Source of the DNA: an uncultured delta proteobacterium
Lineage (GTDB): Bacteria > Myxococcota_A > Polyangia > Polyangiales > Polyangiaceae
DNA: 64,000 nt
NCBI GenBank assembly: GCA_963841435.1
Contig: CAWJCS010000002.1
Span: forward strand, 448,001 to 512,000
Direction: 5' to 3'
The position numbers and the translations under genes are program-made. Positions 26,860 to 52,234 of the stretch are shown here, piece by piece (the first letter of the stretch is position 1; each line of letters starts with the position of its first letter). A model generated the notes under the pieces. That model saw only the letters and a list, made by a program, of their open reading frames with translations. It made no database searches and was not told the origin of the DNA.

Positions 26860-26871
26860 ACCGGCCTTGCC

Positions 26872-27474: not shown

Positions 27475-27702
27475 GCGAATATGTCGTCCGGACTCAGAAT
27501 GACATTCTCGTTGACGCAATTTGGACGTTTTCGGGAGCGGGCCGTACGGGGCGTGACGCGGCGCGCCCCGTGCAAGGATCGCAAAATTCCAGCACGAAAC
27601 TAGTCAGTCTTCGTCGCGAAATTTGGATGCACCGAGGCGCGCGATGATGTTTGATGACGGCGTTTTTCGAGTCAATAGTCCCCCAACCGAGACTGTGATC
27701 CC

Positions 27703-34101: not shown

Positions 34102-35594
34102 TGGTCACACCCATGAAGAACCAATACGCAAACGCCCTCCGATGCAATCGCCGGATGGTCCTCCGCGGGGTCGGCGGCCTGATGCTGGGTCTGCCCGTTC
34201 TGGAAGGTTTCATGCCGCGAACTGCGGCGGCACAAGACGCCATGCGGACGCCTTTCGTGCTCTTCGTGGTGAGTGACAACGGCGTCGTCCAGGCCGGGGT
34301 GGATTTCGGGGGTGGCGGCGAGCCGGAGCGGTTCTGGCCGACAGCGACGGGGCCTTTGACGCAAGCCGGGATGCTCGCCGACAAGGCCACCCGGGCGACG
34401 GGAGAGCTGTCCGACTACGCCGAGAAGCTACTCATCTTGCGGGGCGTCAATCTGCCCTATAGCTCGAACGGTTGTTCTCACTCGGCCGCGGACGCTCAGA
34501 TCCTCACCGCGGCCAACATCACGCCCGGCAGCACCAATTGTCTTGCCAAGGGTCGTCCGCCGACACCGTGATCGCCAAGGCGGTGAACCCCCCCGGACGC
34601 GATCCACTCGTCCTCCACGCGGGGATGTTCGCGCCGGGGGGGACGGGCTTCGACATTCCTGGCTACGTGTCGTACGTCGCCGCCCAGCAACCGCGCGTCT
34701 ACATCGACTCCCCGTACAAGGCCTACCAGCAGATCATCGGCGTGGTCGGGGACGGCAGCGGAAGCTCGGGTGACGAGCAGGCACAGTTGCTACGTGCGGC
34801 GCGCAGCAAGAGCATCAATGACCTTCTGCGGCCGCAAATCCAGGAGCTTTTGGCGCATCCGCAGCTCAGCGCGGGTGACGTGAACCGGCTCGAGCAGCAC
34901 CTGGCGGCCATTCGCGACATCGAGGTGACCATGACCACCTCCGGGTTCACGGTGCCGGACGCCGACATCGAGACCATGCGCTCGATCGATCCGAAGCCAT
35001 ACGACCAGGCGTCGTACGACAAGGCAATCCGGCTCCATTTGCAATTGATGGCGTTCTCAGCTGCGTCCGACTACAGCCGGACCGCCGTCTTGAAGATCGG
35101 CGATCGCATCGACGATCACGTGTACACGATCAACGGCCAGACCTTCGAAATTCCACGACGCTTCACACCGCGTCGTGGCCAATGGCGTCGACCTCTGCCA
35201 CGCGATCGATCGCTTGATGATGGGGCACTACAAGTACCTCCTCGATCTCCTGTCCTCGTACATGACCGCCACCGGGCCGTTGCTCGATCAGGGCGTCGCG
35301 ATCTGGACCAACCAGTGCGCGACGGGAGCGCACTCGTTCAGCAACGTGCCCTGGATCCTGGCGGGCACCGCGAATGGGTTCTTCAAAAAGGGGCAGTACC
35401 TCGTGGTTGGCTCGGGCCAGATGCCCGGCGGTGGTCAAGACGGCAAGGGAGGCGATGGTTCCGTGTCGGGCGTCAACAAGATGCTCAACACGATCATCAC
35501 GGCCGCCGGGGTCACCAAGGCGGGCGGGGCTCCCACCGACGATTTCGGCGATCCCTCGTTGCCGAAGGGGATCTTCCCCGAGCTCCTCGCCTGA
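34101..35594 (+). CDS. DUF1552-family Tat-exported protein #3; two frameshifts (near 34551 and 35149)
   Basis: NRRMVLRG..LPVLE and GCSH in frame 1; SADTVIA..KSINDL..RLEQHL in frame 2; FHDASHR..LLDQG..HSFSNVPWILAG in frame 3. Confidence 0.82.
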
Positions 35595-36577: not shown

Positions 36578-36890
36578 GCAGTTGGCGAGCGAAATGAGCA
36601 CCTCTGTCGGGTTCGGCGCCAGCATTTGCAGCCAGCGCCTCATTTTGAATTATCCGCCTGTGCCCCCGAGGATCACGTTGGGAGAACAGGCTCGCGATGC
36701 TGGGGTTCGGCGAGTGAGGAGAGGTCCGTCAGCGCGCCGAACAAAGTGTTCGTGAAACCGAAAAATTTGCGGGATCCATAACAACAAGGCACGCCTTCCG
36801 ACAATTCTGAACCGGTTGCCAACCGTCACGAGCGTGGACGACGTTGGAGCACGGTGTGCGCGGGCACGCCCATCCTCGGAGAGCGTGTGG

Positions 36891-38732
36891 ATGATGAAGC
36901 TGTCCTGGCACGAGTACGGTGGCTCGAGAGACCTCCTGGCCTGCTGCGCCCTGGCTTTGGCGTGCGGGTGCACGGCCACGGTGGACGGAGGGACCACCCC
37001 GGGCTCCGGCGCCGCACCCGCCGCCAGCGGGGGCTCGACAGGCGCGGCGCCGGGGGCTGGAGGCTCGTCGGCCGGGACCGCGCCGCAGAGCGGCGGGACC
37101 GGCGCGACCGTGGGCTCCGGCGGGACCGGTGCCGCGGCGACCGGGGGATCGGCTGGAACCGGCGCGGGCGCCGCGGGCGGCACCCCACCCGTGTTCGAGG
37201 ATCCGCCTCCGTTCGAGCCCGCCCCGGGCATGCTTCGCCGTTTGACGAGAGCGCAGTTCAAGAACGCCATCCGCGACGTGTTTGGCGTCGAGGTCAATGT
37301 AGACGAGCTCGACCCGGACAGCTTCGACGGCAGTATGCCCGTCGTCGGGGCGTCCACGGTCGTCACCGCCGAGCGCGGAGTCGAGCAGTACCATACGGCC
37401 ATCGAAAGCGCCGTGGACGCCGTGTTCTCCGACGCCGCGAAGCGCGCTGCGTTCATCGGCTGCACGCCGACGGGCAACGCCAATGACGCGTGCGTGCGCG
37501 GCTTCGTCGAGAGCATGGGGCGCCGCGCGTGGCGACGCCCGCTCGACGCGACGGAGATCGCTCGCTTCGTGACGGTCGCCGAGACGGCGGCGACGGAGCT
37601 CGGCAGCCCGGAGGAAGGCGTGCGCTGGGCGACGGTGGCGCTGTTCAGCTCGCCGAATTTCCTCTACCGCCCCGAGCTCGGTGCACCGACGACAGGCGGC
37701 GCGCTCCGCTTCACGGACTTCGAGCTGGCGTCCCGGCTGGCGTTTCTCGTGTGGAACAGCATCGCCGACGACGCGCTGCTCGACGCCGCCGAGAGCGGAC
37801 AGCTTGCCACGGTGGAAGGAATTCGGGCCGCGGCGGAGCGTCTGCTCGCGACGCCCGCGGGGCGCGAGTCAGTGGGCAACTTCGCCGTCGAGTACTTGCG
37901 GCTCGATCGCGTCCTCAGCCAGGCGAAGGACCCGTCGCTCTTCCCCGAGTACTCCCCGGCGCTCCAGGCCGGCATGGTAGCGGACGTGCGCGGCACCTGG
38001 GAGGCGATCGCCCTCGACGACCGGGTCAGCGCGATGGAGCTGTTCTCGACGCCCAAGGTCGTCGTCAACTCCGACCTCGCAAAGGTCTATGGCATCGACG
38101 CCACGGGGCTCACCTCGACCACGTTCGAGCTGCGCTCGCTGCCGGCCGACGGCCCGCGCCTCGGACTGCTCAGCAAGGCGGGATTCCTTTCGGAGTTCGC
38201 GAACCAGAAGGCCGGCTCACCGACGCTCCGCGGCAAGTTCATGCAGGAGGAGCTGCTCTGCACGCCGATCGAGCCCCCGCCCGGCAACGTCAACCTCGCG
38301 ATCGACGATCTGCCGACCGATCAGCCGATGACGAAGCGCCAGAAGCTCGAGATGCACCGGTCCAATCCGACGTGCTCGGGCTGCCATTCGATGATGGATC
38401 CGCTGGGCCTGCCGCTCGAAACCTTCGACGCAATCGGGCGCTACCGCACGACGGAGCAGGGCCTGACGATCGACCCGAGCGGCGACTTCGACGAGCAACC
38501 CGTCGTGGACGCGGCCGACCTCGGGCGTGTCGTCGGAGCCGACCCGCGGGTCGCGCAGTGCCTCGTGCGGAAGTACTTCGCGTACGCCATGGGCCGCAGG
38601 GCGCGCAACGTCAACGGAAGCGTCATCAACGAGCTTGCCGCGTCCTTCGAGGCGTCGGGGTTCAAGCTCCGTGACCTCGTTCTCAACGTCGCGACGAGCG
38701 AAGCCTTCGCCTCCGTCGCACCAGAACTCTAG
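36891..38732 (+). CDS. DUF1592-type PSD/PSCyt lipoprotein #4 with CxxCH
   Basis: LACGC lipobox, LRRLTRAQF, SSPNFLYR, ELASRLAFLVW, SPTLRG, CSGCHSMMDPLG. Confidence 0.9.
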   Translation: MMKLSWHEYGGSRDLLACCALALACGCTATVDGGTTPGSGAAPAASGGSTGAAPGAGGSSAGTAPQSGGTGATVGSGGTGAAATGGSAGTGAGAAGGTPPVFEDPPPFEPAPGMLRRLTRAQFKNAIRDVFGVEVNVDELDPDSFDGSMPVVGASTVVTAERGVEQYHTAIESAVDAVFSDAAKRAAFIGCTPTGNANDACVRGFVESMGRRAWRRPLDATEIARFVTVAETAATELGSPEEGVRWATVALFSSPNFLYRPELGAPTTGGALRFTDFELASRLAFLVWNSIADDALLDAAESGQLATVEGIRAAAERLLATPAGRESVGNFAVEYLRLDRVLSQAKDPSLFPEYSPALQAGMVADVRGTWEAIALDDRVSAMELFSTPKVVVNSDLAKVYGIDATGLTSTTFELRSLPADGPRLGLLSKAGFLSEFANQKAGSPTLRGKFMQEELLCTPIEPPPGNVNLAIDDLPTDQPMTKRQKLEMHRSNPTCSGCHSMMDPLGLPLETFDAIGRYRTTEQGLTIDPSGDFDEQPVVDAADLGRVVGADPRVAQCLVRKYFAYAMGRRARNVNGSVINELAASFEASGFKLRDLVLNVATSEAFASVAPEL

Positions 38733-38748
38733 GTCGCAAGAGAACGCC

Positions 38749-40128
38749 ATGACGATGAAACCCCTGAAGCGACGCAACGTTCTTCGAGGCATGCTGGCGA
38801 CGGGCGCGGCCGTTGCCATCCCGCTGCCGCTGCTCGAGTGCATGCTGAACGAAAACGGCAACGCGCTCGCCCAGTCGAACACCGCCCTCTCCCCGCTCTT
38901 CGTGCTGTGGTTCTTCGGCAATGGGTCGCTGCCCGGCCTCTGGAAACCGTCCGCCACGGGCTCCGGCACGGCATGGCAGCTGAGCTCGCAGCTCCAGCCG
39001 CTCGCAGACCACAAGTCGTACATGACGGTGATCTCAGGGCTCGAGGGCAAGCTCGTCACAGCCGCCGCCCCACATCCGAGCGGTTCGGCCGCCGCGACGA
39101 CGGGCGCGCCCCTGAACGGCAACGCCGTGCGCGCAGCCTCGCTCGACCAGATCGTCGCCGACCAGATTGCCGCGGGCGCGCCGTATCGCTCGATCGAGGT
39201 GGGGGTGACCCCGGCGACGCCGAACGGACCCGAGGACTCGCTCCAAACGGTTTCGCACGGGGGACCCAACGCGCGAAAAATGGCCGAATACGACCCGAAG
39301 GCGATTTTCACACGCCTGTTCGGCAGCACGCAGGCGCCTCCAACCACTGGCGAGGAGGACCCGGCGGTCAAGCTCGCGCGCGTGCGCACGAGCGTGCTCG
39401 ACGCGATCCTCGAGGACGGCAATGCGCTCGAGCAGCGCCTCGGTGCCACCGATAAGCAACGTGTGGAAGCCCATCTCGAAGCGATCCGAGCCATCGAAAT
39501 GCGCCTGGATACCATGCCGGCGACGGGCGGGACGCTACCGGCCGCCTGCGGCAGCGTGACCGCACCCACCGTCGGCAAGGACACCAAGAGTGAGGCGCCG
39601 CCCGAGGTCAACACCGCGATGGCAGAGCTCACGAACCTGGCGCTCGCCTGCGAGAAGACGCGCGTGGCCACGTTCATGTTCTCGCTTCCCGCGGCGCACG
39701 TTTACTACCGGCACCTCGCCTCCGACATGAATGACGATTTTCACGACACCATCTGCCACGGGGACGCCGGCACCGAGTCGGACCAGCCCCGCGTGGACAA
39801 GGGCGTGCTCTACGCCATGAAGTGCCTCGACGAGTTCCTGACCAACATGAAGAACCTGCCGCACGGCGCGGGGAACCTGCTCGACGCATCGCTCGTCTAC
39901 GTCACGTCCGACATTGCGTGGGGCAAGGTGCACACCAAGGAGGAATGGCCGGTGCTCATGGTCGGCAAGGCCGGCGGGCGCCTGCGCGGCGACGAGCACC
40001 ACAATTTCCAGAGCGAAAACCTCACCCGAGCGCTGCTCACGGCCGCCCAGATCATGGGCGCTCCGCAGACCGAGCTCGGCATCGACGGCGGCAAGGTCAC
40101 CGCCGCGCTGCCGGGCATCATCGTCTAG
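38749..40128 (+). CDS. DUF1552-family Tat-exported protein #4
   Basis: LKRRNVLRG..LPLLE; SLDQIVA; SVLDAI; ALACEKTRV; DDFHDTICH; NLLDAS. Confidence 0.9.
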   Translation: MTMKPLKRRNVLRGMLATGAAVAIPLPLLECMLNENGNALAQSNTALSPLFVLWFFGNGSLPGLWKPSATGSGTAWQLSSQLQPLADHKSYMTVISGLEGKLVTAAAPHPSGSAAATTGAPLNGNAVRAASLDQIVADQIAAGAPYRSIEVGVTPATPNGPEDSLQTVSHGGPNARKMAEYDPKAIFTRLFGSTQAPPTTGEEDPAVKLARVRTSVLDAILEDGNALEQRLGATDKQRVEAHLEAIRAIEMRLDTMPATGGTLPAACGSVTAPTVGKDTKSEAPPEVNTAMAELTNLALACEKTRVATFMFSLPAAHVYYRHLASDMNDDFHDTICHGDAGTESDQPRVDKGVLYAMKCLDEFLTNMKNLPHGAGNLLDASLVYVTSDIAWGKVHTKEEWPVLMVGKAGGRLRGDEHHNFQSENLTRALLTAAQIMGAPQTELGIDGGKVTAALPGIIV

Positions 40129-40257
40129 CCTCCCGGCAGGGACTGGTTCCCGGCTGAACCGACGAGCCCCCCTGCGACCGGTTCCACTCATCGCAGAATC
40201 TTCGAGAAAACGGGGGTCTGAGTAACCTCTGGCGCGGGCGGTGCCACTACAAGGTCC

Positions 40258-40893
40258 ATGGCCCTTTCGCCGGAGCGTTCGAACGTGCCCTTGAGGCTCG
40301 TCCGCCCGGCGGCCGAGGCCGAGCTCGTGGCGGACTGCGTGGCCCGGGAGCCGGCCGCTCTCCGGAGCCTATTCGAGCGCGAGCGGTCGCGGGTGCACGC
40401 GCTGCTCTACCGCGTGGTGGGGTCGAACGCACCCATGGACGACCTGCTCCAGGACACGTTCCTGGAGGTGTTTCGCTCGCTTCCTGGCTTTCGTGGTGAT
40501 TCCGCGCTCAGCACTTGGATCGACCGGTGCGCCGTGCGCGTGGCGTACGCGCACTTCGCGCGCAAGAAACGCCTGCCGTCGCTGCAGCCCGTGGAGGACG
40601 TCGAAGCAGGGAGCCCCAGCGTGGACGAGCACGCTTCGATGCGCGAGGCGGCCCGGCGCCTTTACGCCGCACTCGACCGCATCGAGCCGCGGCAACGCAT
40701 CGCATTCACGCTGTTCGTGATCGAAGGCCGCTCCCAGCTCGAGGTGGCAAGCGTGATGGGATCCTCTCTCGCGACGGTGAAGATCAGGGTGTGGCGGGCG
40801 CGGCGAGCCCTGGAACGGTTCGCGAGGCAGGACGCGCTGCTTTCGGATTTTTTGAGCGACGACGCTCGGGACGACAAGGACGAAAAGAAATGA
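40258..40893 (+). CDS. ECF RNA polymerase sigma factor
   Basis: DDLLQDTFLEVFRSLPGFRGDSALSTW (region 2); EVASVMG..ATVKIRVWRAR (region 4). Confidence 0.92.
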   Translation: MALSPERSNVPLRLVRPAAEAELVADCVAREPAALRSLFERERSRVHALLYRVVGSNAPMDDLLQDTFLEVFRSLPGFRGDSALSTWIDRCAVRVAYAHFARKKRLPSLQPVEDVEAGSPSVDEHASMREAARRLYAALDRIEPRQRIAFTLFVIEGRSQLEVASVMGSSLATVKIRVWRARRALERFARQDALLSDFLSDDARDDKDEKK

Positions 40894-41942
40894 AGAAGCT
40901 CGCACGCATCGAAGTCGAGCCGCTCGGCGAGCAGCGCTGGTCGAAGCTCGAGCGCTCGCTGTTCTTGCGCCTCGAGCGCGAAGCGGATGTCGCTCTTCCG
41001 GCCCCCATTCGGCCGCAACGAGCGCGCCGGAGCGCCTGGCTCGTGGCGGCGGCTCTCGCGGGTGCGGTCGCCGTGCTTTCGTTCGTGACGCTTCGCTCAC
41101 CGTCGCAAGCCGTGCTGGAGCAGCCGTCGCACATCACCACGGGGCCGAGCCCGTCTCACCTCGCGCTGCCGGGCCTGTCGCTCGACGTCGAGCCCGAGTC
41201 TGCCGTCGTCATCGGCACCGAAACGACGGATGGCCTTCTGATCGTGGTCGATCGGGGCGGCATCGCGTGCAAGGTGGCGCCGCGCGCGAGTGACGCGCCG
41301 CTCATCGTGCAGGCCGGGGCCGTCAGGGTGCGCGTGGTCGGGACGCGCTTCCGCGTGACGCGCTCGGGCGGCGGAGCGCGCGTGAAGGTGGACGAAGGCG
41401 TGGTCGAGGTGAGCGCGCTCGGGCAAACGTCGCGCGTGCGGGCGGGCGAGCAATGGTCGATGCCGGAGACGACGCGGGCCGACCCGACGCCGCCGGCCGT
41501 GGCGCCGGGCGCGGCTCCCACGGAGCCGTCGAGCGTCGCCGGTGAAGGGGAGCCCGCTCCGACGGACGCGGCGCCCGGCGAGACGCCTGCGCTGGTCTCG
41601 AGGCCTCACGCCGCGCCCGAGCGCGGTACGCGTGAGGCGCACCCGGCAGACGCGGTGCGCGAGGAGCCCCCCTCGGCCGACACGCAGCCGTCGGCGCAGG
41701 CCATCTTCGAGCAAGCCGCCGCCCTCGAGCGCGGCGACCCGGGGCGCGCAGCACGGCTCTATGGCACGCTGGAGTCCGGCACCGATTCGTGGGCCCAAAA
41801 CGCGCTCTACGCGCACGGACGGCTGGAAGCCTCGCTCGGCAACCGTGCCGGCGCGCGCCGCTTGCTGGAGCGCTACCTCGCGCGCTTCCCCCGCGGCAGC
41901 AACGCGGAGGATGCGCGAGCGGTGCTCGAGCGGCTCAGGTAG
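40890..41942 (+). CDS. FecR-like transmembrane anti-sigma factor with C-terminal TPR-like helices
   Basis: ATGA overlap with sigma; TM helix; VRVVGTRFRV..VKVDEGVVEV FecR motif; LERYLARFPRG C-terminus. Confidence 0.85.
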   Translation: MKKLARIEVEPLGEQRWSKLERSLFLRLEREADVALPAPIRPQRARRSAWLVAAALAGAVAVLSFVTLRSPSQAVLEQPSHITTGPSPSHLALPGLSLDVEPESAVVIGTETTDGLLIVVDRGGIACKVAPRASDAPLIVQAGAVRVRVVGTRFRVTRSGGGARVKVDEGVVEVSALGQTSRVRAGEQWSMPETTRADPTPPAVAPGAAPTEPSSVAGEGEPAPTDAAPGETPALVSRPHAAPERGTREAHPADAVREEPPSADTQPSAQAIFEQAAALERGDPGRAARLYGTLESGTDSWAQNALYAHGRLEASLGNRAGARRLLERYLARFPRGSNAEDARAVLERLR

Positions 41943-41954
41943 TCTCGCGGGCGC

Positions 41955-42947
41955 GTGCGGAAGTGGGCTCTGCGGCTGCTCCTGGCTCTTGCTGCGCTGT
42001 CGGTCGCAACGAGCGCGCGGGCCACTCCGCGCCGCATCGCGGTACTCCAGCCTGACGGCGAGCTCATCCGCGCGCTGGTTCTGGCGCTCTCGCCCTGGGG
42101 CGTTACGCCCATCCGGAGCGAGGCACCGCCCCCTCAGGGCTCGGCGCCGGAAGCCCTCCGTACGGCTTCGGACGTGGCGCACGAGCTCTTGGTCGAAGCA
42201 GTCGTCTGGGTCTCGACCTCGGAGCAAGGTGCTTTGCTCTGGGTTTTCGATGCGCACACGGGCGAGATCACCACGCGGCTTCTCACCCAGAAGCCGCCGT
42301 TCGACAGCGCCACCGCGGCCGCCGTGGCGCTCAGCGTGAAGACGGTGCTGCGCTCCAGCCAGATCGCCCCGCCCGAAGAACGCCTGGCCGTGCCGCCGCC
42401 GCCGCCGCCGCCGCCGGAGCCGAGGGTCGATCCCACGCTCGCGCTCCAGCTCGGCGGTGGCGTGCAGCTGGTGCGTCCGGGTCGGCTCGCGCTCCGGGGG
42501 GAGCTCGCCGCGCTCGTGTGGATTGCGGCGGCGCGACGCCTCGGCGTCGGGGTGTACGGGGCGACGGGGCCGGAGCTGCGCCTCGAGGAGCCGAGCTTTC
42601 GCGGCCGCTACCGCGAGGACGAGCTCGGCGGCACGGTGCGCCTGCGGGTTCTGCGTACGCCACGGACTTCGATGACGCTGGCACTCGGCGGCGCCGCACA
42701 TTTCAGCACGCTGCGCGGCACACTCCTTCGCGACGCGTGGCCGCGCACCGTGCGTCGCCTCAACGGGTCGCTCGATGCGGAAGCGTCGGCGAGCTTCGAA
42801 GTGGTCGGTGGCGTCTACCTGGGTGCAGCGCTCGGGGGCGCCTATTTCCCGAGATACCGGCGCTACCTCGTCGAGGGCACACCGATTTTCTCGCCCTGGC
42901 CCGTGGCGACCAGCTTGAAAGGCATCCTGGGTGTCGCGCTCTTCTGA
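41955..42947 (+). CDS. Putative outer-membrane beta-barrel protein with N-terminal periplasmic domain
   Basis: Signal peptide, poly-Pro hinge, alternating beta-strands, C-terminal Phe (GILGVALF). Confidence 0.6.
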   Translation: MRKWALRLLLALAALSVATSARATPRRIAVLQPDGELIRALVLALSPWGVTPIRSEAPPPQGSAPEALRTASDVAHELLVEAVVWVSTSEQGALLWVFDAHTGEITTRLLTQKPPFDSATAAAVALSVKTVLRSSQIAPPEERLAVPPPPPPPPEPRVDPTLALQLGGGVQLVRPGRLALRGELAALVWIAAARRLGVGVYGATGPELRLEEPSFRGRYREDELGGTVRLRVLRTPRTSMTLALGGAAHFSTLRGTLLRDAWPRTVRRLNGSLDAEASASFEVVGGVYLGAALGGAYFPRYRRYLVEGTPIFSPWPVATSLKGILGVALF

Positions 42948-44649
42948 GAACGCTCGGCGCTCGAGGCGACGGCTGCTCGCGAGCGCGGCTTTGCCGCTGC
43001 TCGGGGTATGCCTGGTCGCGTGCGGTCGCGAGGATATCGAGCTCGCGCGCCCGACGAGCCTTGCGCCCGCCGTGAGCGATTGCAGCGCGGCCGTCCCGGA
43101 AGGGCTCATCGCTGCGCGTCCCCCCATGGGCTGGAACGGCTGGAACGCGTTCGGCTGCTCCCCGACGCTGGACGAGGCGCTCCTCAAGGCCAACGTCAAC
43201 GCGCTCGTGGACAGTGGGATGCAGAGCGCCGGCTACCAGTACGTCAACCTGGACGCCTGTTGGGAAACCGAGCGCGGCGCCGACGGCCAGCGCCAGATCG
43301 ACGCCACGCGTCTGCCGGGCGGAATCGAAGCGTTCGCGGAGTACGTCCACACCCGGGGGCTCTCGCTCGGTATCTACGCGCCGATCGAGACCTGCTCCGC
43401 CGGGCAGGGCATCGAGGGACATGAAGCCGACGACGCGGCCACCTACGCCGCCTGGGGGGTCGACTACGTGAAGCTCTCGCGCTGCGACGGCGGCGCCCAG
43501 GTGAGCGAGGATGCCGGAACGGGCCTCGCCACGGCGATCGACGAAACGGGGCGACCGATGCTGCTGAGCCTGGCGAGCCCCCCTTTCCAGGAGTGGATGC
43601 CGGAGCGGGCGCAGGCCTTTCGGTGCGCGGGCAACATCGAGCCGACCTGGAGCTCGCTGCTGCGCTCGATCGACTCGACCCTGCCGCTGGCGGCGTACGC
43701 GCGCCCCGGGGCCTTCAACGATCCGGACATGCTCGAGATCGGCAACGGAGCGCTCACTCCGGGCGAGCAGCGCGTCCAGCTCGCGGTGTGGTCGATCCTC
43801 TCGGCGCCGCTCCTCGCCGGCAACGACCTCTCGGTGATGACGGAGGAAACGCGCGCCCTGCTCACCAACACCCGCGTCATCGCGCTAAACCAGGATCCGC
43901 TGGGCCTGCAGGCGGCGCTCGTCCGTAGCGAAGGCGACGTCGAGCTGCTCGCCAAGCCGCTCTCCGGCTGCGGCGCCCGCGCGGCCGTGCTCTACAACCG
44001 CGGCGACACGAGCGCCGACATCGCCGTCGCGTGGAACGACCTCTGGCTCGAAGCGGCCGGCGGCGCCGTCCAAAACCTCTGGACCGACTCGCCGGTCGCC
44101 TCGGACACGTCTGGCTTCCGCGTGACGGTGCTGCCGCACGACGCTGTCGCTCTGCGCGTGACGGGCGTCGAGCCCCCGCTGCCGGGCGGTCGTAGCTACC
44201 TCAGTGACCTCCGCCCGAGCTACGCGACGAACGGCTTCGGCCCGTTTGAGCTCGATCAGACCAACGGTGAGGACAGCGCCCTGGATGGCGCACCGATCCG
44301 CCTCAGGGGCGCGGCGTACGACAAGGGCCTCGGGGTTCACGCCCCTTCGCTCCTCCGCTACCGCCTCGGGCGAGCGTGCACGAGGTTCGAAGCCGACGTG
44401 GGGATCGACGACGATCAGCAGGGGCAGGGCTCGGTCGAATTCGAGGTGTGGGCCGACGGCGAGCGCCTGTTCCGCAGCGGTGTGCTCACCGGCTCGAGCC
44501 CGGTGCGCACCGTGAACCTCGACCTGACCGGCCGTCGGGACCTCCGGCTCTTCGTCGGGACCGGGGGCGACACGAACGGCAAGGACCACGGCGTCTGGGC
44601 CGGAGCACGCCTCGACTGCGACCCCGCCGGCACGCCGGCTGGGCCCTGA
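42931..44649 (+). CDS. GH27 alpha-galactosidase-like lipoprotein with NPCBM (CBM51) domain; catalytic residues substituted
   Basis: LVAC lipobox; PPMGWNGWN, WGVDYVK, FNDPDMLEIGN, APLLAGNDL, VIALNQDPLG; NPCBM YDKGLGVHAPS..FEADVGIDD..SVEFEV..DHGVW. Confidence 0.9.
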   Translation: MSRSSENARRSRRRLLASAALPLLGVCLVACGREDIELARPTSLAPAVSDCSAAVPEGLIAARPPMGWNGWNAFGCSPTLDEALLKANVNALVDSGMQSAGYQYVNLDACWETERGADGQRQIDATRLPGGIEAFAEYVHTRGLSLGIYAPIETCSAGQGIEGHEADDAATYAAWGVDYVKLSRCDGGAQVSEDAGTGLATAIDETGRPMLLSLASPPFQEWMPERAQAFRCAGNIEPTWSSLLRSIDSTLPLAAYARPGAFNDPDMLEIGNGALTPGEQRVQLAVWSILSAPLLAGNDLSVMTEETRALLTNTRVIALNQDPLGLQAALVRSEGDVELLAKPLSGCGARAAVLYNRGDTSADIAVAWNDLWLEAAGGAVQNLWTDSPVASDTSGFRVTVLPHDAVALRVTGVEPPLPGGRSYLSDLRPSYATNGFGPFELDQTNGEDSALDGAPIRLRGAAYDKGLGVHAPSLLRYRLGRACTRFEADVGIDDDQQGQGSVEFEVWADGERLFRSGVLTGSSPVRTVNLDLTGRRDLRLFVGTGGDTNGKDHGVWAGARLDCDPAGTPAGP

Positions 44650-44681
44650 CCCGTAACCTTTCACCGCCCCCATTCCACTAG

Positions 44682-45227
44682 GTGGGAATGCCGCTCCACG
44701 CGCTTCCGAGCTTGCCGCCGGAGCGGAACATTCCGGATCCAGGAGCGGCCCCCGTGCCCTACGAAGAGCTGGCCACCTACGTGCGAAAGCTGGCGCGGCG
44801 GAGCCTCGGCGCGGGCGCGGACGCGGACGACGTCGTCCAGCAGGTGCTCTTCAGCGTCCTCCGCCACGGCTCCGAGCTTCGCGACCGGGGAGCGCTGCGC
44901 GGGTGGGTGCGCGCCATCACCTTCAGTGTCGTCGCCGATGTCATCCGGCGGCGCCGGACGTGGCGGGTGGTCGAGCTCGATGCCGCCCGACAGCGAAGCG
45001 GCGACCTCGTACGCACCGTCGAGATGCGCGAGCTCCTCGCACGCCTGCAGTCGATGATCGAGCGCCTCCCACCCGCCGAGCAGTCGGCCTTCGTGATGCG
45101 CTACGTCGAAGGTCGCAAGGTCAACGAAGTCGCCCGCAGCGAGGGCTACTCGCGCGCGACCGCGCGGCGGCGCCTGGTCAGGGCGGAGCGGATCCTGAAG
45201 ACGCTGGCGACGCAGATGGCGTCATAG
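44682..45227 (+). CDS. Second ECF sigma factor, no adjacent anti-sigma
   Basis: DADDVVQQV..LRGWVRAI; LPPAEQSAFVMRYVEG..EVA..ATARRRL. Confidence 0.78.
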   Translation: MGMPLHALPSLPPERNIPDPGAAPVPYEELATYVRKLARRSLGAGADADDVVQQVLFSVLRHGSELRDRGALRGWVRAITFSVVADVIRRRRTWRVVELDAARQRSGDLVRTVEMRELLARLQSMIERLPPAEQSAFVMRYVEGRKVNEVARSEGYSRATARRRLVRAERILKTLATQMAS

Positions 45228-45282: not shown

Positions 45283-45834
45283 TCAGCCGCGGCAGACGCT
45301 GGGTGCCGCGCACGTGCGCTGCCCGCTCGGCAACGCGGCGCAGCAGCCCCGGCGGCAATCGCCGTCAACGTCGCAGCGCTCCGCGCAGTAGGCGATGCCC
45401 CCTGACACGTCGCGCGGGTCCGAGATGCAAACCCAACCGCTCGAGCAGTCGCTGTCCGAGTCGCAAGGGCCCTCGGGGGTGCGGCAGTAGCGGTCTCCGG
45501 CGGTCCCCGTCACACACGATGCAGCGCCGCAGTCCGAGTCCGTCTCGCAGGCAAACTTGGCAGACGGGCAGTAGAGCGTGCCGCGGTGATCGACGGCGCA
45601 CACGCCGCTCTCGGGGCAACCCTCGGACGATGCGCACATCCCGACGACGCACGTCGGGTGGCCGCTCTGGTCGAGGTCAACGCAGATGGCGTCCGTCGGC
45701 ATGGGATCGCTGCAATCCGCATCCGACTTGCACGGCGGAACCTCGCCGCCGAGCACCGAATCGCCGTCGACGCTGCACCCTGCCGCCAGCCACGCGACCA
45801 CGCCCGCAAGCACCGTGCCGAGTCCTCTGCCCAT
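45283..45834 (-). CDS. Small Cys-rich repeat lipoprotein
   Basis: LAAGC lipobox; repeated CxxDxDC motifs. Confidence 0.65.
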   Translation of the reverse strand: MGRGLGTVLAGVVAWLAAGCSVDGDSVLGGEVPPCKSDADCSDPMPTDAICVDLDQSGHPTCVVGMCASSEGCPESGVCAVDHRGTLYCPSAKFACETDSDCGAASCVTGTAGDRYCRTPEGPCDSDSDCSSGWVCISDPRDVSGGIAYCAERCDVDGDCRRGCCAALPSGQRTCAAPSVCRG

Positions 45835-45997
45835 GGCGCCCAAGCTCTCGCCGGTCGTAGCCGGCGTCAACGACGCCGCGCTCGGCAACGCCTCCGACCC
45901 GTCATCGACGGTGAGAGCTACCGGGCCCGCCCCGGGACCTTCGTCGGGAAGCGTGCAGGTAGTCGAGCTTCTGCGTGAAGCCGGCGAGCGGCGGCCG

Positions 45998-47119
45998 TCA
46001 CGCGGTGCGCTTCTTGTAGCTCCACATCGCGAGGGCGTTGAACACCACGGCGAAGCCGCCCAGCTTGAGCAGCACGGGCGCGAGGTCCCTGAGGGTGCTG
46101 CCCTTGATGTAGACCGCGCGCACGACCGTGATGAGATACGACGGCGGGTTGAAGGCGGCGATATCCTGCGCCCAGCCCGGCATGCTCTCGATCGGCGTGT
46201 ACAGGCCACTCAGCAAGATGAAGATCATCATGATGAAGAACGAGAGCAGCGTGGCCTGCTGCTGGCTCTCGGTGATGGTGCTGATGAACAGCCCGATGCC
46301 CAAAACACCCACCAAGTAGAGAGCCGAGAAGACGTAGAGCGTGAAGAGCGAGCCAAGTGGCCAGAGCCCGAACACGACGAGCGCGACCACGATGCCGATC
46401 GAGATGGACACCATGCCGAGCACCCAGAAGGGGATGAGCTTGCCCAAAATGAACTCGACCTTGCGGATCGGCGTCACGTTGATCTGCTCGATGGTTCCGG
46501 CTTCTTTCTCTTGGACGATGTTGAGCGAGGACAGGAACGCCCCCACCATCGTCACCAGAATCGGCAGCAGGCCAGGAACCATGAACGCCGCGTAGTTGAC
46601 GTGAGGGTTGTACCAGCTGGCGGTCGTGACCTCGATCGTCGGCGCCTGAGGACTCGGCGAGGCAGGCATGGACTCGGCTCCGAGCTCGCCCTGAAACTGC
46701 CGGACCATCGACAGCGCGTAGCTGGTCCCCAGGCCCGCACGCACGCCATTGACCGCGTCGGCAACCAGCTGCAGCGAGGCGTGCCCGGTCGTCGTCAGAT
46801 CGCGCTCGAAATCGTGCGGAATGGTCAGCACGATGTCGGCGCGGCCGTCCTCCATGAGCTGGGTCCCCGTGCGGTAGTCGGGTGGGGCCGCCACGATGCG
46901 GAAGTAGTTGGAGGCCCCGACCTTCTGGATCAGCCGCTGGGAGTCGCTCGAGTGATCCTGGTCCACGATAGCGATCGAGATGTGCTTGACCTCGTAGTCC
47001 GCGGCCAGCGGAATGAGCACGAGCTGCACCACCGGCATGATGAAGATCAGCCGCAAGATGGCTCTGTCACGGAAGATGAGCAAAAACTCCTTCTGCAAGA
47101 GGAAGTAGAGATTGCGCAT
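45998..47119 (-). CDS. ABC-2 type permease (YbhR/YhhJ-like)
   Basis: KEFLLIFRD, WYNP, EKEAGTIEQINVTP, LSGLYTPIESMP. Confidence 0.9.
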   Translation of the reverse strand: MRNLYFLLQKEFLLIFRDRAILRLIFIMPVVQLVLIPLAADYEVKHISIAIVDQDHSSDSQRLIQKVGASNYFRIVAAPPDYRTGTQLMEDGRADIVLTIPHDFERDLTTTGHASLQLVADAVNGVRAGLGTSYALSMVRQFQGELGAESMPASPSPQAPTIEVTTASWYNPHVNYAAFMVPGLLPILVTMVGAFLSSLNIVQEKEAGTIEQINVTPIRKVEFILGKLIPFWVLGMVSISIGIVVALVVFGLWPLGSLFTLYVFSALYLVGVLGIGLFISTITESQQQATLLSFFIMMIFILLSGLYTPIESMPGWAQDIAAFNPPSYLITVVRAVYIKGSTLRDLAPVLLKLGGFAVVFNALAMWSYKKRTA

Positions 47120-47122
47120 GCG

Positions 47123-48271
47123 CTAAAGCCTCTGCTTGAAGGTCCGCCAGGCGATGGCCATCAGCGCCAGCGTCATGCCGGCGAGGACCAGCGTCGGCTC
47201 GATGATGGCCGAAAAACCGAGGTGCTTGATCATCACGCTGCTCGCGATCAGATAGAACCACCTCGTGGGGATGACGTGGCTGATCACCCGCAAGGCGAGG
47301 GGCATGTTCTCGATGGGGAACATGAACCCGCTGAACACCAATGCCGGCATCAATAGGCCCACCAGCGAGACGAACATGGCCGTCTGCTGCTGCTCGACCA
47401 CGTTCGATATCACGAGGCCGAGCGAGAGCGTCGTCACGATGAACAGCAGGCTCTCCGCGACGAGCAGCGGGATATTGGCGCCACGCGGCATGTCCATCAG
47501 GCCATAGGACAAGAGCAGGATGATCAGCACGTCGATCAGGCAGAGCACCAGGTAGGGCACGGCCTTGCCGATGATCAGGCTGAGCGGATGCATGGGTGAG
47601 ACGAGCAGCACCTCCATGGTGCCGCGCTCCTTCTCGCGCACGATCGAGACGGACGTCATCATGGCGCCCAGCAGCATCACGATCAGCGTCATGACGCCCG
47701 GGACGAACATGTAGCTGCTCTTGAGCTGGGGGTTGTAAAGCATGCGAGTTTCGACGTTGATGGCTCCTGCCCGGACCGGAGCCTTCGTCAGGTCCGCCTG
47801 GTACTGACCGACGATGGCCGCCGCGTAGTTGGTGACGGTGCTGGCGGTGTTCGGATCGGAGGCGTCCGCGACCAGACGGATTTGGGCGTGACCGAGGTGC
47901 CTGAGGTCATGGTCGAATTCTGGGAGGAACACCACGGCAAGGCGTGCGTCGCCGCGCCGGAAGCGCTCGCCGACCTCGGCCTCGCTCTTTACATGGCCCG
48001 AGAAGGTGAAATATTTGCTCTCGGCGATGCGGTCGATGAGCCCAATCGTCAACGCGTCGGGCACGCGGTCCAGGACGACGAAGTTGCTGTTCTTGACCTC
48101 GTTCGACAGAGCAAAGCCGAAGAGCGTCATCATGACGACCGGCAGGCCCAGGAGAATGAGCAGGCTCCTCCGGTCGCGCACGACGTGCTTGGCTTCCTTG
48201 AGCACGAAAGCGACGAACATCCGGATCGCGCTGACCCGGTGCTCCGGGCCCTCGGTCGCTTCAGTCGCCAT
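47123..48271 (-). CDS. ABC-2 type permease (YbhS-like)
   Basis: KEAKHVVRD, YNPQL, REKERGTMEVLLVSP, FSGFMFPIENMP. Confidence 0.9.
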   Translation of the reverse strand: MATEATEGPEHRVSAIRMFVAFVLKEAKHVVRDRRSLLILLGLPVVMMTLFGFALSNEVKNSNFVVLDRVPDALTIGLIDRIAESKYFTFSGHVKSEAEVGERFRRGDARLAVVFLPEFDHDLRHLGHAQIRLVADASDPNTASTVTNYAAAIVGQYQADLTKAPVRAGAINVETRMLYNPQLKSSYMFVPGVMTLIVMLLGAMMTSVSIVREKERGTMEVLLVSPMHPLSLIIGKAVPYLVLCLIDVLIILLLSYGLMDMPRGANIPLLVAESLLFIVTTLSLGLVISNVVEQQQTAMFVSLVGLLMPALVFSGFMFPIENMPLALRVISHVIPTRWFYLIASSVMIKHLGFSAIIEPTLVLAGMTLALMAIAWRTFKQRL

Positions 48272-49004
48272 GGCGCTTCGCCTTTCGTGCCAGCGCGACG
48301 AACACCTCTTCGACCGAGGCCACCCCGTACTCCGCGCACAGCTCGGCGGGCTTTCCCATCGCGGCGATCGCTCCGTCAACCATGATCGACACGCGATCGC
48401 AGTACTCGGCCTCGTCCATGTAGTGAGTCGTCACGAACACGGTTACCCCGCGCGACGACGCCTCGAAGATCATGTCCCAAAACTGTCGCCGCACGATGGG
48501 ATCGACGCCGCCCGTGGGCTCGTCCAAAAAGACCACCTTCGGCTGGTGCACCGTGGCGACCGCGAAGCTGATGCGCTGCTTCCAGCCGAGCGGCAGATCG
48601 TCCACCCGCGTATCGGCGGCCGAGGTCAGCCGCAGCCGCTCGAGGATCTCACTCGTCTTGTCTTTGACCTCCTGGAGCGGCAGCCCGTAGATGCCGGCAA
48701 AGAAGCGGATGTTCTGGCGCACGCTGAGCCTGCCGTAGAGCGAGAACTTCTGGCTCATGTAGCCAATCCGCTTCTTGATCTGCTCGGACTGGGTCATGGC
48801 GTCGAAGCCCGCGACCGTCGCGCGTCCCGAGGTCGGCTCGAGCAGCCCGCAGAAGATCCGCATCGCCGTGGTCTTGCCCGCGCCGTTGGCGCCGAGAAAA
48901 CCGAAGATCTCGCCCGCGGCCACCTGGAGATTGATGGCGTCGACCGCCGTGAACGAGCCGAAGCGGCGCGTCAGGTTCTCGGCCTCGATGACCCACTCAG
49001 TCAT
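48261..49004 (-). CDS. ABC transporter ATP-binding protein (YbhF C-half-like)
   Basis: GANGAGKT Walker A, LPLGWKQR signature, VFLDEPTGGVDP, TTHYMDEAE. Confidence 0.92.
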   Translation of the reverse strand: MTEWVIEAENLTRRFGSFTAVDAINLQVAAGEIFGFLGANGAGKTTAMRIFCGLLEPTSGRATVAGFDAMTQSEQIKKRIGYMSQKFSLYGRLSVRQNIRFFAGIYGLPLQEVKDKTSEILERLRLTSAADTRVDDLPLGWKQRISFAVATVHQPKVVFLDEPTGGVDPIVRRQFWDMIFEASSRGVTVFVTTHYMDEAEYCDRVSIMVDGAIAAMGKPAELCAEYGVASVEEVFVALARKAKRHGD

Positions 49005-49923
49005 GGGCCTCTCCGTGGATGAGATCGATGAAGACATCTTCCACGTTCGGCTCGATCGCGCGCACCGACGCCGCCTGGTGCCCGAGCCCACGCAGGTAGG
49101 CGAGCACGGCTTCGGGACCTCCGGCGTCGGCCTGGAGCACCAGGTGGTGCTCTCGTCCGAACGCGAAGCAGTAGCGGGTCCCGGGGTAGGCCCGGAGATC
49201 CTTGAGAATCGGAAAGAGTCGATCGCCGCTCACGGCGTAGGTCTCGGTGGCATGGCGCTCGAGCAGCGCGGCCAGCGTGTCGAGCGCGATGATCTTGCCC
49301 TTCTGTACGAGCGCGATCCGGTCGCAGCGCGCCGCCTCGTCCATGTACGGTGTCGAGACGACGATGGTGATGCCGCCTTCGCGCAAGCGTCCGAGCATGC
49401 TCCAGAAGTCCTTGCGCGAGACGGGATCGACGCCGGTGGTCGGCTCGTCCAAAAACAGCACCTTGGGCGCATGAATGAGCGCGCAGCAGAGGGCCAGCTT
49501 CTGCTTCATGCCGCCCGACAGCTTGCCCGCCAGGCGCGTCTTGAACGGCTCGAGCTGCGTGTAGATGTCGGAGACGAGGTGGTAATTGGCCTCGACCGTC
49601 GTGCCGAACACCGTGGCAAAGAACGCCAAATTCTCGGCCACGGACAGATCCTGATAGAGCGAGAAGCGCCCCGGCATGTAGCCGACCAGCGCGCGGATGG
49701 CGCGGAAGTCCTGCACCACGTCGTGCCCGAGCACGCTGGCCCGGCCGCGATCGGCCAAAAGGAGCGTGGTCAGGATGCGGATTAGCGTGGTCTTGCCCGC
49801 ACCGTCCGGGCCGATGAGGCCGAAGATCTCGCCCGGCGCGACCTCGAACGACAGGTCGTCCAACGCCGGCGCGTCGGCGCGCGGGTAGCGCTTGCAGAGA
49901 CGATCGACGACCACGGCCGGCAT
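48997..49923 (-). CDS. ABC transporter ATP-binding protein (YbhF N-half-like)
   Basis: GPDGAGKT, LSGGMKQK, LFLDEPTTGVDP, STPYMDEA. Confidence 0.92.
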   Translation of the reverse strand: MPAVVVDRLCKRYPRADAPALDDLSFEVAPGEIFGLIGPDGAGKTTLIRILTTLLLADRGRASVLGHDVVQDFRAIRALVGYMPGRFSLYQDLSVAENLAFFATVFGTTVEANYHLVSDIYTQLEPFKTRLAGKLSGGMKQKLALCCALIHAPKVLFLDEPTTGVDPVSRKDFWSMLGRLREGGITIVVSTPYMDEAARCDRIALVQKGKIIALDTLAALLERHATETYAVSGDRLFPILKDLRAYPGTRYCFAFGREHHLVLQADAGGPEAVLAYLRGLGHQAASVRAIEPNVEDVFIDLIHGEAHD

Positions 49924-49939
49924 CAGTGCACCGCCCTCG

Positions 49940-50929
49940 TCACCGGAACGAGACCTCGGCGTACATGCCGAGCTTGAGCGTCCCGTCGTTCTGGACGCGG
50001 ATCTTGATGGCGTACACGAGGTTGGAGCGCTCGCTCTTGGTTTGAATCGTCTTGGGCGTGAACTCCGCCTTGTCGGACACCCAGGTGAGCGTGCCCGGTA
50101 GTTCGCGGTACGCCTTTTCGCCCGCGTCGATGAACACGCGCACCTTCTGGTTGAGCTTCACCTGGGCGAGCTGATCGCCGGTGATGTACGCGCGGAGCTC
50201 GATGTGGCTGAGATCCGCGATGCGGTAGAGCGGCTTACCGGGGGTAGCGAATTCGTACTGCTCCGCGTACTTGGTGAGCACGGTGCCGGCGATGGGATTG
50301 ATCACCTTGCATTTCTTGATCTGGTCATCGATCGCGGCGATGCGTGCTTGAGTGGGCGAGCGTTCGCTCTCGGTGGCTCGGTTCTGCAGAGCCACCTGAT
50401 CCTTGTACGACGCGGCTCGTTGATGGGTGATCGCAATCTGGCTCTTGGTCGAGGCCATCTGTCGCTTGAGGACGGCGATCTGGCCTTCGATGTCCGTCAG
50501 CTGCTTGGCGGGCGCGGCCTTCGCCTCCACGAGCGTGGTGAAGCGCCGGCGCTCGCGCTCGAGCACGTCGAGCTGCTCGGCCTGCACGGCCAGCTGCGAC
50601 TCGGTCGTCTTGGCCTCTTCCCGCAAGATCTGGAGCTGAGGCTTGGCCTCGGTCGTGCGGTCGCCGATGGCGAGCTCGGACGCCCGAACCTGGTTTCGCT
50701 GCAAGACGAGCTGCTGGCAATCGATCTCGGCCGCGAGGGCATCGGCCGCCAGCGTTTGGCCCTCCAGGATGGGCATGGCGATGATTTGCCCGGCGACTTC
50801 GGCCGCGATGATGGTGTCGCGAGCCTCGAAGACGCCGCTGGCGTCGTGCTCGTCCTTCCGGGTGGAGCAGCCCGCGGCGAGGACGAGCAGTGCGGCAAGA
50901 AGCGTGCGTGGGAGTTGTCCGTGGTTCAT
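49940..50929 (-). CDS. HlyD-family periplasmic adaptor (YbhG-like), lipoprotein
   Basis: AAGC lipobox, SGVFEA, coiled coil, AEFTPKTIQTKSERSNLVYAIKI, LKLGM. Confidence 0.9.
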   Translation of the reverse strand: MNHGQLPRTLLAALLVLAAGCSTRKDEHDASGVFEARDTIIAAEVAGQIIAMPILEGQTLAADALAAEIDCQQLVLQRNQVRASELAIGDRTTEAKPQLQILREEAKTTESQLAVQAEQLDVLERERRRFTTLVEAKAAPAKQLTDIEGQIAVLKRQMASTKSQIAITHQRAASYKDQVALQNRATESERSPTQARIAAIDDQIKKCKVINPIAGTVLTKYAEQYEFATPGKPLYRIADLSHIELRAYITGDQLAQVKLNQKVRVFIDAGEKAYRELPGTLTWVSDKAEFTPKTIQTKSERSNLVYAIKIRVQNDGTLKLGMYAEVSFR

Positions 50930-52233
50930 GAGGCACCCTTGATCAAGGCAAGCTGGTGGCAGGCAAGGTTTCGTTGGGCTCGATGCACCGCGCGCCGGGT
51001 TCGTGCCTGGTCTTCCTGAGTCAGATCGTTGATCAGGTCGGTCATGCTCGCGGTGCCGAGCTCGAGCTGGAGCTCCGTTTGCTTGCGTGCGCGCTCTCGC
51101 ACGTCGAGCAGCCCGTCATCCAGCCGGATGACGGCGTCGAGTCGGTGGAGCTCGGTGGTCTGCGTGTCGAGCTCCAGGTTCACCTGCTTGACGACGGTGT
51201 CCCGCTGCCGCGCGACCAGCGCGCGCTGCACTGCCAGCTGCTCACTCCCGTTCCGGTGGGTGCCCGCGTACAGATAGGTCAGCGGCACCGTGAGCTGAAT
51301 GCCGCCAATGAAGTAGAACTCGAAGCTGTCGTTCAGGAAGTTGAGGCCGGGGCGGCCGTAACCGCCGGTCGCGAAGGCCCCGAGCCGCGGGTAGTCAACA
51401 TCCCGACTCAGCTGCTCCTGCGCGTCGAGCGTCTGGGCCTGGGCGTCCAGCAGGCTGAGCTCCGGTCAACGCAGGGAGCTCGGGGCCGGGTGCGTCCCGG
51501 GCTCCGCGCAGGTCGTCGCTTCCGGTGCGAGCACGGCGCTCGGCGACAGCGCGGCGCCGGTCAGATCCTGGAGGCTCTGCCTGACTCCGGTGAGCTGAGC
51601 GCTCGCCTCCGCCATGGCTTGGCCCGCCTCGAGCTGTCTTGCCTGAGCGAGCAGCAGGTCCCGCTCGGTGGATAGCCCGTTCTTTAGCGCCACCTGCGCC
51701 TTGTCGACGACCGTCCCGAGGTAGCGCTGCAGGGCCTCGTCCTGCGCTTCGAGCTCTTGCTGGACCACCCCGGCAAAGTACAGCTGCAAGATGCGGTCCT
51801 GCACCTGGTGCCACTCGACGTTGACCTTCTCGTGCTCGACGCGAGCCTGCGTTTCCGCCAGGTGCTTCTGATCCGCGGTGACGCCGCCGTCCCAGATGCT
51901 CTGCTTGAGATCCAGCGTGGCCTTGTACTGATCCTTCGACGGGGGCGAGATGTTCAGGCCGGGGATCGGGATGGCGATGCTGGTGACCTCGGATTGCCAG
52001 GTCGCCTGCGCGCCCAGGGACAGCTGCGGCCAGTACGCGCGATTGAGCTTCGCGCGCGTGAGCTCGAGCGATTGGGCGAGAAGCGGCTGCTTGGCCAGCG
52101 TCGGATGATGGCGCCGAGCGGCGTCGAGGAGCGAGGCCAAGGACACGGTCGACTCGCCGTCGGCGTGCGCCGGAGCGGGCGCGAGCGAGAGACCCACGAG
52201 CGCGACGCCCGCCAAGGCCGATGATATTCGCAT
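50926..52233 (-). pseudogene. TolC-family outer-membrane efflux protein interrupted by an in-frame TGA at 51466-51468
   Basis: ORFs 51466..52233 and 50926..51288 share a frame; reads SLR*PELSLLD..YPRLGAFATGGYGRPG; signal peptide, WPQLSL, QSIWDGG. Confidence 0.8.
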
Positions 52234-52234
52234 G

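Follow-up and report, generated by a model that had tools for sequence, protein, structure and literature searches.

A 64,000-nt stretch of DNA from a soil myxobacterium of the Polyangiaceae (contig CAWJCS010000002.1 of assembly GCA_963841435.1, positions 448,001-512,000), here called the window, carries a gene group that we read, at a probability of roughly 0.55, as a cassette of four parts for cell-surface signalling that works without TonB and can exchange its lipoprotein receptor. The four parts are an extracytoplasmic function (ECF) sigma factor, ECF1; a FecR-domain anti-sigma factor; an outer-membrane barrel protein; and a lipoprotein in which a glycoside hydrolase family 27 (GH27) domain without its catalytic acids is joined to a carbohydrate-binding module, CBM51. 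A second ECF gene, ECF2, follows. A preliminary description of this DNA had listed these five open reading frames (ORFs) with their overlaps and an intact GH27 frame, and all are found at the coordinates it gave. The features, in window positions, are as follows.

40222..40249 (+), putative ECF1 promoter GTAACC-N16-CCACTA, 8 nt 5' of the ECF1 start
40258..40893 (+), ECF sigma factor 1 (ECF1), part of the cassette core, with Sigma70_r2 and r4_2 matches
40890..41942 (+), FecR-domain anti-sigma factor (FecR E 1.3e-7), single-pass, with a Pro-rich linker and a C-terminal region resembling tetratricopeptide repeats (TPR)
41955..42947 (+), outer-membrane barrel protein: signal peptide, TolB-N-like domain, Pro linker, 8-strand barrel
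about 42027-42362 (+), its periplasmic TolB-N-like domain, predicted by fold search
about 42423-42944 (+), its 8-strand OmpA-type barrel, predicted by fold search
42931..44649 (+), GH27 lipoprotein (GH27+Melibiase_C+NPCBM): lipobox LVAC, motif, tether, GH27 barrel, beta-sandwich, CBM51
43021..43044 (+), motif C-G-R-E-D-I-E-L, starting at the lipidated Cys, a candidate docking peptide
43255..43257 (+), codon GCC, Ala109 where DDxW has its second Asp, a residue present in 25 of 119 homologues
43477..43479 (+), codon TCG, Ser183 replacing the nucleophile Asp, from alignment to 1UAS and 6F4C
43633..43635 (+), codon AAC, Asn235 replacing the acid/base Asp, from the same alignment
44191..44613 (+), CBM51 (NPCBM) with Phe436, His470 and His553, aligned to 2VMG
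44653..44680 (+), second promoter copy, 7 nt 5' of the likely ECF2 start
44688..45227 (+), orphan ECF sigma factor 2 (ECF2), likely start ATG 44688, in a frame open from GTG 44682

The ECF1 and anti-sigma genes overlap by ATGA, and 32 bp separate the GH27 lipoprotein gene from the ECF2 ORF. No cognate TonB-dependent transducer lies beside the ECF1/FecR pair, as the preliminary description had said: a search with PF00593 gave 0 matches on this contig and 10 on the other contigs of the genome, where a partner in trans is possible.

The lipoprotein matches Melibiase_2 with an E value of 4.7e-51, and its model (predicted local distance difference test score, pLDDT, 90) has the (beta/alpha)8 plus beta-sandwich fold, with a TM-score of 0.91 to the rice alpha-galactosidase 1UAS. 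Three of its active-site acids had been described as replaced, at codons GCC 43255, TCG 43477 and AAC 43633, and this reading was correct. When the protein is aligned to the characterised rice (1UAS) and Nicotiana (6F4C) enzymes, a check proposed at the outset, neither the nucleophile nor the acid/base position holds Asp: the reference segment YLKYDNC becomes YVKLSRC, and WRTTGDI becomes FRCAGNI. The replaced residues correspond to Asp52 (the second Asp of DDCW), Asp130 and Asp185 of 1UAS, of which Asp130 is the nucleophile and Asp185 the acid/base (PMC2670981; this and the other papers given by PMC number are cited from excerpts).

This loss extends through the family. Among the best 119 homologues, 96 have Val at the nucleophile position and 1 has Asp; at the acid/base position 57 have Asp and 37 have Asn, and no protein has both catalytic Asp residues together. 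Control GH27 genes, mostly ordinary members from pattern scans of metagenome and genome contigs, keep both in 71 of the 72 parsed from 79 loci, among the matches listed. The closest pairs of dead copies have ratios of nonsynonymous to synonymous substitution (dN/dS) of 0.084 and 0.142, and the closest active pairs 0.07-0.10; distant pairs were saturated and were not used. Because the loss is common to 118 of 119 homologues in intact frames and dN/dS is low, the GH27 lipoprotein is, as far as sequence can tell, a conserved pseudo-enzyme under purifying selection like that on its active paralogues, and not a decaying gene. The genome also has an intact GH27-CBM51 paralogue (C5:746972-748675) that keeps both Asp residues and has no cassette. 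A separate small GH27-CBM51 clade (L284, L285, L289 and L296) has lost the acid/base, two members also lack the nucleophile, and no cassette lies nearby.

Whether loss of the Asp residues co-occurs with ECF/FecR/barrel synteny, a question posed in the preliminary description, can be answered from relatives labelled Myxococcota/Polyangiaceae. We surveyed 383 genomes of the family and found 50 full-length GH27-CBM51 matches above 500 bits; the rows compared are 49 of these (one unpublished genome was omitted) plus one metagenome locus, and the tallies over 383 genomes, and over 401 below, include three unpublished genomes. The 20 class I rows all lack the nucleophile, and the dead GH27 gene stands directly behind a barrel gene in 18 of the 19 with upstream DNA, the other standing behind a FecR paralogue. 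The nine class II rows also all lack the nucleophile. Catalytic residues kept by homologues in this synteny had been named as a finding that would count against repurposing, and no such homologue is among these rows. Class II differs from class I in its N-terminal motif, and in 7 of the 7 rows with enough DNA it is divergent from another set of ECF, FecR/TPR and barrel genes; the barrel of that set is remotely homologous to the window's (hhalign 96%). Among the other 21, more distant, GH27-CBM51 rows, the profiles used here found a barrel in 0 and an unrelated ECF in one, and 17 keep both Asp residues, including the paralogue in the window's genome. Classes I and II form one clade in a quick tree of 67 rows (Shimodaira-Hasegawa-like approximate likelihood-ratio support, SH-aLRT, 99).

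Several loci vary this arrangement. In genome G315, a dead GH27 with an intact motif (L265) lies directly behind a FecR paralogue with no barrel, while an ECF/FecR/barrel cassette without a fourth gene lies on another contig (L193); behind this cassette come a promoter and an orphan ECF. In the class II sister clade (L272-L278, L300), divergent from a second ECF/FecR-TPR/barrel subfamily, the motif is C-G-D-R-H-L-T-A-I, and a similar -10 element (CACTA) lies 7 nt 5' of the ECF start. A third N-terminal motif, C-D-x-x-I-x-L-G-A-R-P, marks the dead GH27 members P0107, P0113 and P0114.

The trio is far more widespread than the GH27. The barrel profile matches in at least 43 of 401 genomes of the order and in 611 cluster representatives. 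We compared 41 barrel loci, one from a metagenome contig and the rest from 40 of the 42 further genomes with a match. In 38 of them the genes for ECF1, anti-sigma and barrel stand together; two loci are cut by contig ends and one has the barrel alone. Directly behind the trio, 8 loci have a dead GH27, 22 a Cys-rich repeat lipoprotein and 1 a PD40 lipoprotein, and most of the others are cut or show a lipoprotein elsewhere close by. GH27-partnered barrels form one clade (17 of 18 rows, support 98) confined to family f1, and four families have Cys-rich partners; as the barrel tree is open at its base, any order of partner-exchange events would be a guess. By gene order, then, the cassette is not built around GH27, and the dead GH27 is one of several interchangeable lipoproteins. 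The preliminary description had the system built on the dead GH27; that protein is indeed dead and linked, but the cassette mostly exists without it.

The usual fourth gene encodes a Cys-rich repeat lipoprotein with about 50 Cys in 300 residues (L197, L201, L212, L220 and 18 further loci); a Pfam Conotoxin_I2 match on one such partner was read as common cysteine spacing only. The second barrel subfamily has partners with motifs of their own, among them the products of GH128 genes that adjoin GH16 and GH64 genes, a neighbourhood pointing to glycans as putative ligands. These GH128 lipoproteins (L303:2552-3523, L304:2501-3637 and L306:4406-5359) are divergent from the second cassette type and carry the motif C-G-S-x-D-L-x-P-I, and their catalytic NEP and TEF/TEI motifs look intact by eye. 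The window's genome has further ECF/anti-sigma/barrel-like cassettes at C1:196500-200300, C2:583900-587300, C3:529900-532600 and C6:155000-158600, three of which adjoin a lipoprotein-like gene (CBM-like, Cys/Gly repeat or lectin-like, by eye).

The exchangeable partners have one short element in common. C-G-R-E-D-I/V-E-L directly follows the lipidation site, beginning with the lipidated Cys, in dead GH27 and Cys-rich lipoproteins alike, and it recurs on unrelated bodies (Cys-rich repeats, a PD40 propeller) within one cassette type. Of the 96 GH27 homologues with an N-terminus, 88 have it. A stricter form occurs in 25 of 29 fourth-slot lipoproteins, a count that is partly circular because these were picked by a loose form of the motif, versus 2 of the genome's 446 predicted lipoproteins, one of them the GH27 lipoprotein. 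A tether, disordered and 26-101 residues long, links the motif to the folded domains. We rejected a twin-arginine interpretation of the lipoprotein signal, as relatives lack it.

The barrel protein matched no Pfam or NCBIfam family; in the ESM Atlas it matches only unnamed Myxococcota clusters, and its periplasmic domain gave no usable named match there. Its AlphaFold model (pLDDT 90) comprises a signal helix, an alpha/beta domain (residues 25-136) and a barrel (157-330). The predicted alpha/beta domain resembles the TolB N-domain at a moderate Z of 8.6 (root-mean-square deviation, rmsd, 3.3 over 103 aligned residues), and the barrel resembles the OmpA/OprF type at Z 17.4 (rmsd 1.8 over 133); the modelled eight amphipathic strands and terminal Phe are those of an OmpA-type barrel. 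Most of the columns common to all barrels fall in the periplasmic domain. The anti-sigma has a single hydrophobic helix (residues 50-68) and TPR matches below cut-off. Its V-V-G-T-R-F motif (residues 149-154) contains the FecR-type G-T, the self-cleavage site of FoxR (PMC9249621), and the G-T motif is present in 30 of 39 homologue rows.

Where a ligand might bind is suggested by conservation in 116 class I proteins (3 without the domain start were dropped). Asp108, Cys155, Lys181, Cys185, Arg231 and Asp266 are invariant in all 116. The galactose-contacting positions of the GH27 pocket vary freely: positions 109, 149, 183 and 235 differ among the proteins, and Trp71 is mostly Tyr. In contrast, CBM51 keeps His470 in 106, His553 in 114 and an aromatic residue at 436 in 106 of the 116 proteins, while the two histidines are present in 5 and 8 of 17 active paralogues. 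Conservation in the dead copies is 0.77 for CBM51 versus 0.67 for the catalytic barrel (first 40 rows), and in active copies 0.51 versus 0.55. In 2VMG the aligned counterparts of these CBM51 residues lie in the GYG, THA and DHG segments, so the predicted NPCBM domain has the aromatic platform and two histidines of the galactose-binding CBM51 type; the galactose site of 2VMG is a tyrosine platform with two histidines (PMC9513282). Because CBM51 is the best-conserved part while the GH27 pocket positions vary, CBM51 is probably the better candidate for the ligand site.

The proposal that a hydrolase had been repurposed as the receptor stands in part. A conserved pseudo-enzyme is linked to the ECF/FecR/barrel trio, but its pocket varies freely and CBM51 is the part best kept, which does not favour a hydrolase pocket turned receptor. 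The variable pocket may be relaxed, or it may be a diversified second site. We take the exact binding residues of 2VMG to be those matched by Phe436, His470 and His553.

The window contains two copies of the putative promoter GTAACC-N16-CCACTA, one upstream of each ECF gene, and none of 100 shuffles contains it. A match precedes ECF1 in 16 of 48 rows of relatives (one a duplicate, two cut), among them 10 of the 13 GH27-partnered loci with upstream DNA. Nine related loci hold a second copy, at 10 sites in all, and at 9 of these sites a start codon follows after 7-8 nt; the genes behind it are seven of DUF1592 type (four Pfam-confirmed), two orphan ECFs and one unnamed lipoprotein. These matches suggest transcription that is leaderless and autoregulated. 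As the conserved promoter precedes both sigma factor genes, ECF2 is probably a target of ECF1 and not a core part. The preliminary description had counted ECF2 with the group, and it does lie behind the GH27 gene after the 32-bp gap; it has, however, its own copy of the putative promoter, and a same-strand ECF behind GH27 is found in only 2 of 20 class I loci, the window's included. Homologues of ECF2 at 12 other loci have no sense-strand promoter match before the gene, and no anti-sigma gene lies behind ECF2.

A genome-wide regulon listing by this pattern failed its control and was rejected. The window's genome has 4 matches at this spacing versus 8 over 14 other spacings, and matches were kept as leads only beside cassettes or with a start codon 7-8 nt downstream. 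Among the candidates are L342, L348 and L358, lipoproteins of about 350 residues in three genomes that start 7-8 nt after the promoter and have no Pfam match. The DUF1592/DUF1552 operon type stands behind the second promoter copy in 7 related loci; the window holds four DUF1592/DUF1552 gene pairs (6147-10786, 17900-21190, 32254-35594 and 36816-40128), and the DUF1552 gene at 34101-35594 is split by frameshifts.

The model we favour draws on sequence analysis of catalysis loss, selection, linkage, the common motif, folds and promoter conservation; the protein contacts, surface exposure, ligand, proteolysis and reading of the promoter by ECF1 are what we infer beyond these. The lipoprotein would be anchored in the outer membrane and dock on the barrel protein through its acidic-hydrophobic N-terminal motif. 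The barrel's periplasmic TolB-N-like domain would take the place of a TonB-dependent transducer's signalling domain and hold the FecR/TPR part of the anti-sigma. A ligand bound by the lipoprotein body would disturb this chain of contacts; in the window's cassette it would most likely be a glycan bearing galactose, bound by CBM51, and the dead GH27 would serve as a scaffold or a second site. The anti-sigma would then be cut, and the released ECF1 would transcribe the operon it belongs to and the other genes that have a copy of its promoter, namely ECF2 here and DUF1592/DUF1552 operons in most relatives. Conserved arginines occur both in the periplasmic domain and in the outer loops of the modelled barrel protein, so the acidic motif could dock from either the periplasmic or the outer side.

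A more general version, which we put forward tentatively and would not yet bet on, is a plug-and-play system of the Polyangiales. The barrel would be a socket, subfamily-specific peptides the plugs, and any lipoprotein body a receptor working without TonB energy; the GH27 lineage would have lost catalysis once and then moved between socket subfamilies by a change of plug.

Several observations weigh against a signalling cassette with a lipoprotein receptor. The partner gene sits in an ECF-induced operon, as an output would; three of the 41 cassettes have no fourth gene, and in one genome the dead GH27 and the barrel lie apart. A Cys-rich repeat protein, which has no link to sugars, is the most frequent partner (22 of 41). 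The galactoside specificity first proposed gains no support from the putative regulon, as no galactosidase or galactose gene lies under the putative promoter in the window's genome or at cassette loci. The promoter pattern is not enriched genome-wide (39 matches versus 110 for a reversed control in 5 genomes). The genomes are kin, so the linkage counts are not independent events, and because four of the 21 distant rows form a separate degenerate GH27 clade without a cassette, loss of catalysis is not always tied to it. The long disordered tether makes a simple allosteric relay unlikely; pulling or shedding would be needed. We found no passage on force sensing in the excerpt of PMC10328401.

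The first of these points is the starting place for an alternative that we consider unlikely but worth taking seriously: the dead GH27-CBM51 protein is an output, an ECF1-induced surface lectin or adhesin held or shielded by the barrel, as GltA/B do for CglB, and the ECF answers another signal. Its gene lies within the putatively autoregulated operon, myxobacterial barrels do retain the surface lipoprotein CglB (PMC9946355), and a flexible tether with an intact CBM51 would suit an adhesin. However, an output leaves unexplained both the tie between barrel and anti-sigma (38 of 41 loci), which is stricter than that to any lipoprotein type, and the conserved periplasmic domain.

That the short motif alone is common to all partners, on unrelated bodies, would also be expected of an occupancy sensor in the manner of RcsF/OmpA, which would report lipoprotein docking and hence export failure, shedding or attack, with the body as bait or tripwire. 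Undocked CglB is shed by proteolysis (PMC9946355). Yet the CBM51 histidines are strongly conserved and beta-1,3-glucanase genes adjoin the GH128 partners, which suggests specific ligands, and we hold this explanation to be improbable.

It is very improbable that the GH27 is still catalytic by an altered mechanism, following the precedent of GH97, in which the nucleophile was lost with a switch to inversion (PMC2670981). Asp108, Lys181, Arg231 and Asp266 are kept throughout the 116 proteins, but the acid position is Asp in only 55 of them, and the conservation analysis showed no new conserved acid in the GH27 lipoprotein fit for an inverting mechanism: near the pocket only column 154 is acidic (83%) in a way specific to the clade, and here it holds Thr. 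Finally, although the frameshift-split gene elsewhere in the window indicates that assembly errors occur, a decaying or mis-assembled gene beside an unrelated regulator, which the preliminary description had allowed for, is ruled out by the family-wide loss in intact frames, the linkage and the low dN/dS.

Three further groups of genes lie nearby. A Cys-rich protein with a weak Myxo_Cys_RPT match (45283-46209, -) is convergent with ECF2. A TetR-headed efflux-type operon (45998-52855, -) has ABC-2 permeases, two ATPases and membrane-fusion and outer-membrane factor-like genes, called by eye except for TetR. A run resembling sugar metabolism (21643-28929) includes a TIM-barrel isomerase, a Gfo/Idh/MocA oxidoreductase, a ThuA lipoprotein, a porin and a major facilitator superfamily (MFS) transporter.

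Taken together, the cassette looks like an apparently undescribed plug-in variant of cell-surface signalling, real and broader than first read; in the open-access literature we found no description of it or of a bacterial GH27 pseudo-enzyme sensor. FecR-type regulators without a TonB-dependent receptor have been noted in Polyangiaceae (PMC7826278), and the cassette offers a concrete answer to how they could receive signals. It delimits a conserved family of bacterial GH27 pseudo-enzymes, labelled alpha-galactosidase in databases, and yields testable parts: an 8-residue motif, two histidines, a promoter, and a candidate regulon that includes uncharacterised DUF1592/DUF1552 operons. If the plug model is true, it would also provide a modular tool for surface sensors in Gram-negative cells.

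Several known systems resemble the cassette in part. Like FecI/FecR/FecA, it has an ECF, a single-pass FecR regulator with a G-T motif and an adjacent outer-membrane protein with an N-terminal periplasmic domain, and in FecA and PupB the signalling domain holds the anti-sigma. It differs in having an 8-strand barrel with a TolB-N-like domain instead of a TonB-dependent transducer, a TPR-like tail on the regulator, a separate lipoprotein and apparent autoregulation (PMC9249621). The ECF267 group of Sorangium and Chondromyces, related taxa, has a FecR-like anti-sigma fused to TPRs in the +1 position and no TonB-dependent receptor (PMC7826278). The same arrangement is found here, with TPR matches below cut-off, and ECF1 may belong to ECF267. 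That group, however, has kinases as candidate regulators, with no barrel, lipoprotein or conserved promoter in the excerpted account (PMC7826278); among 39 window ORFs scanned there is one protein kinase, about 26 kb away.

The Dma1/Reo proteins of ECF21 in Bacteroidota also tie an ECF to an 8-strand barrel without TonB, and split anti-sigma/barrel forms are noted for some ECF21 subgroups. Dma is one chain, confined to Bacteroidota and described there without FecR, TPR, a TolB-N-like domain or an exchangeable lipoprotein (PMC10927553, PMC7826278), whereas the window has two genes, with a separate signal peptide, in a myxococcotal host. The alpha-galactosidases of GH27 with CBM51 (1UAS, 6F4C, 3A21; 2VMG) have the same fold, domain order and buried Asp/Lys/Arg/Cys network, but the whole dead clade here has lost the nucleophile. 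In Myxococcus, the GltABH barrels likewise retain a surface lipoprotein, CglB, in a motility complex with no sigma factor (PMC9946355).

A functional parallel, drawn already in the preliminary description, is to clostridial SigI/RsgI, in which CBM, PA14 and glycoside-hydrolase modules serve as exchangeable surface sensors of a sigma factor (PMC6852018). In RsgI, module and anti-sigma form one chain, in a cell with a single membrane (PMC6852018); here it is a separate lipoprotein encoded two genes downstream, predicted to lie across the outer membrane, and the glycoside hydrolase is a family-wide pseudo-enzyme. The likeness therefore holds for how the systems would work, yet the cassette is a member of neither RsgI nor FecIRA.

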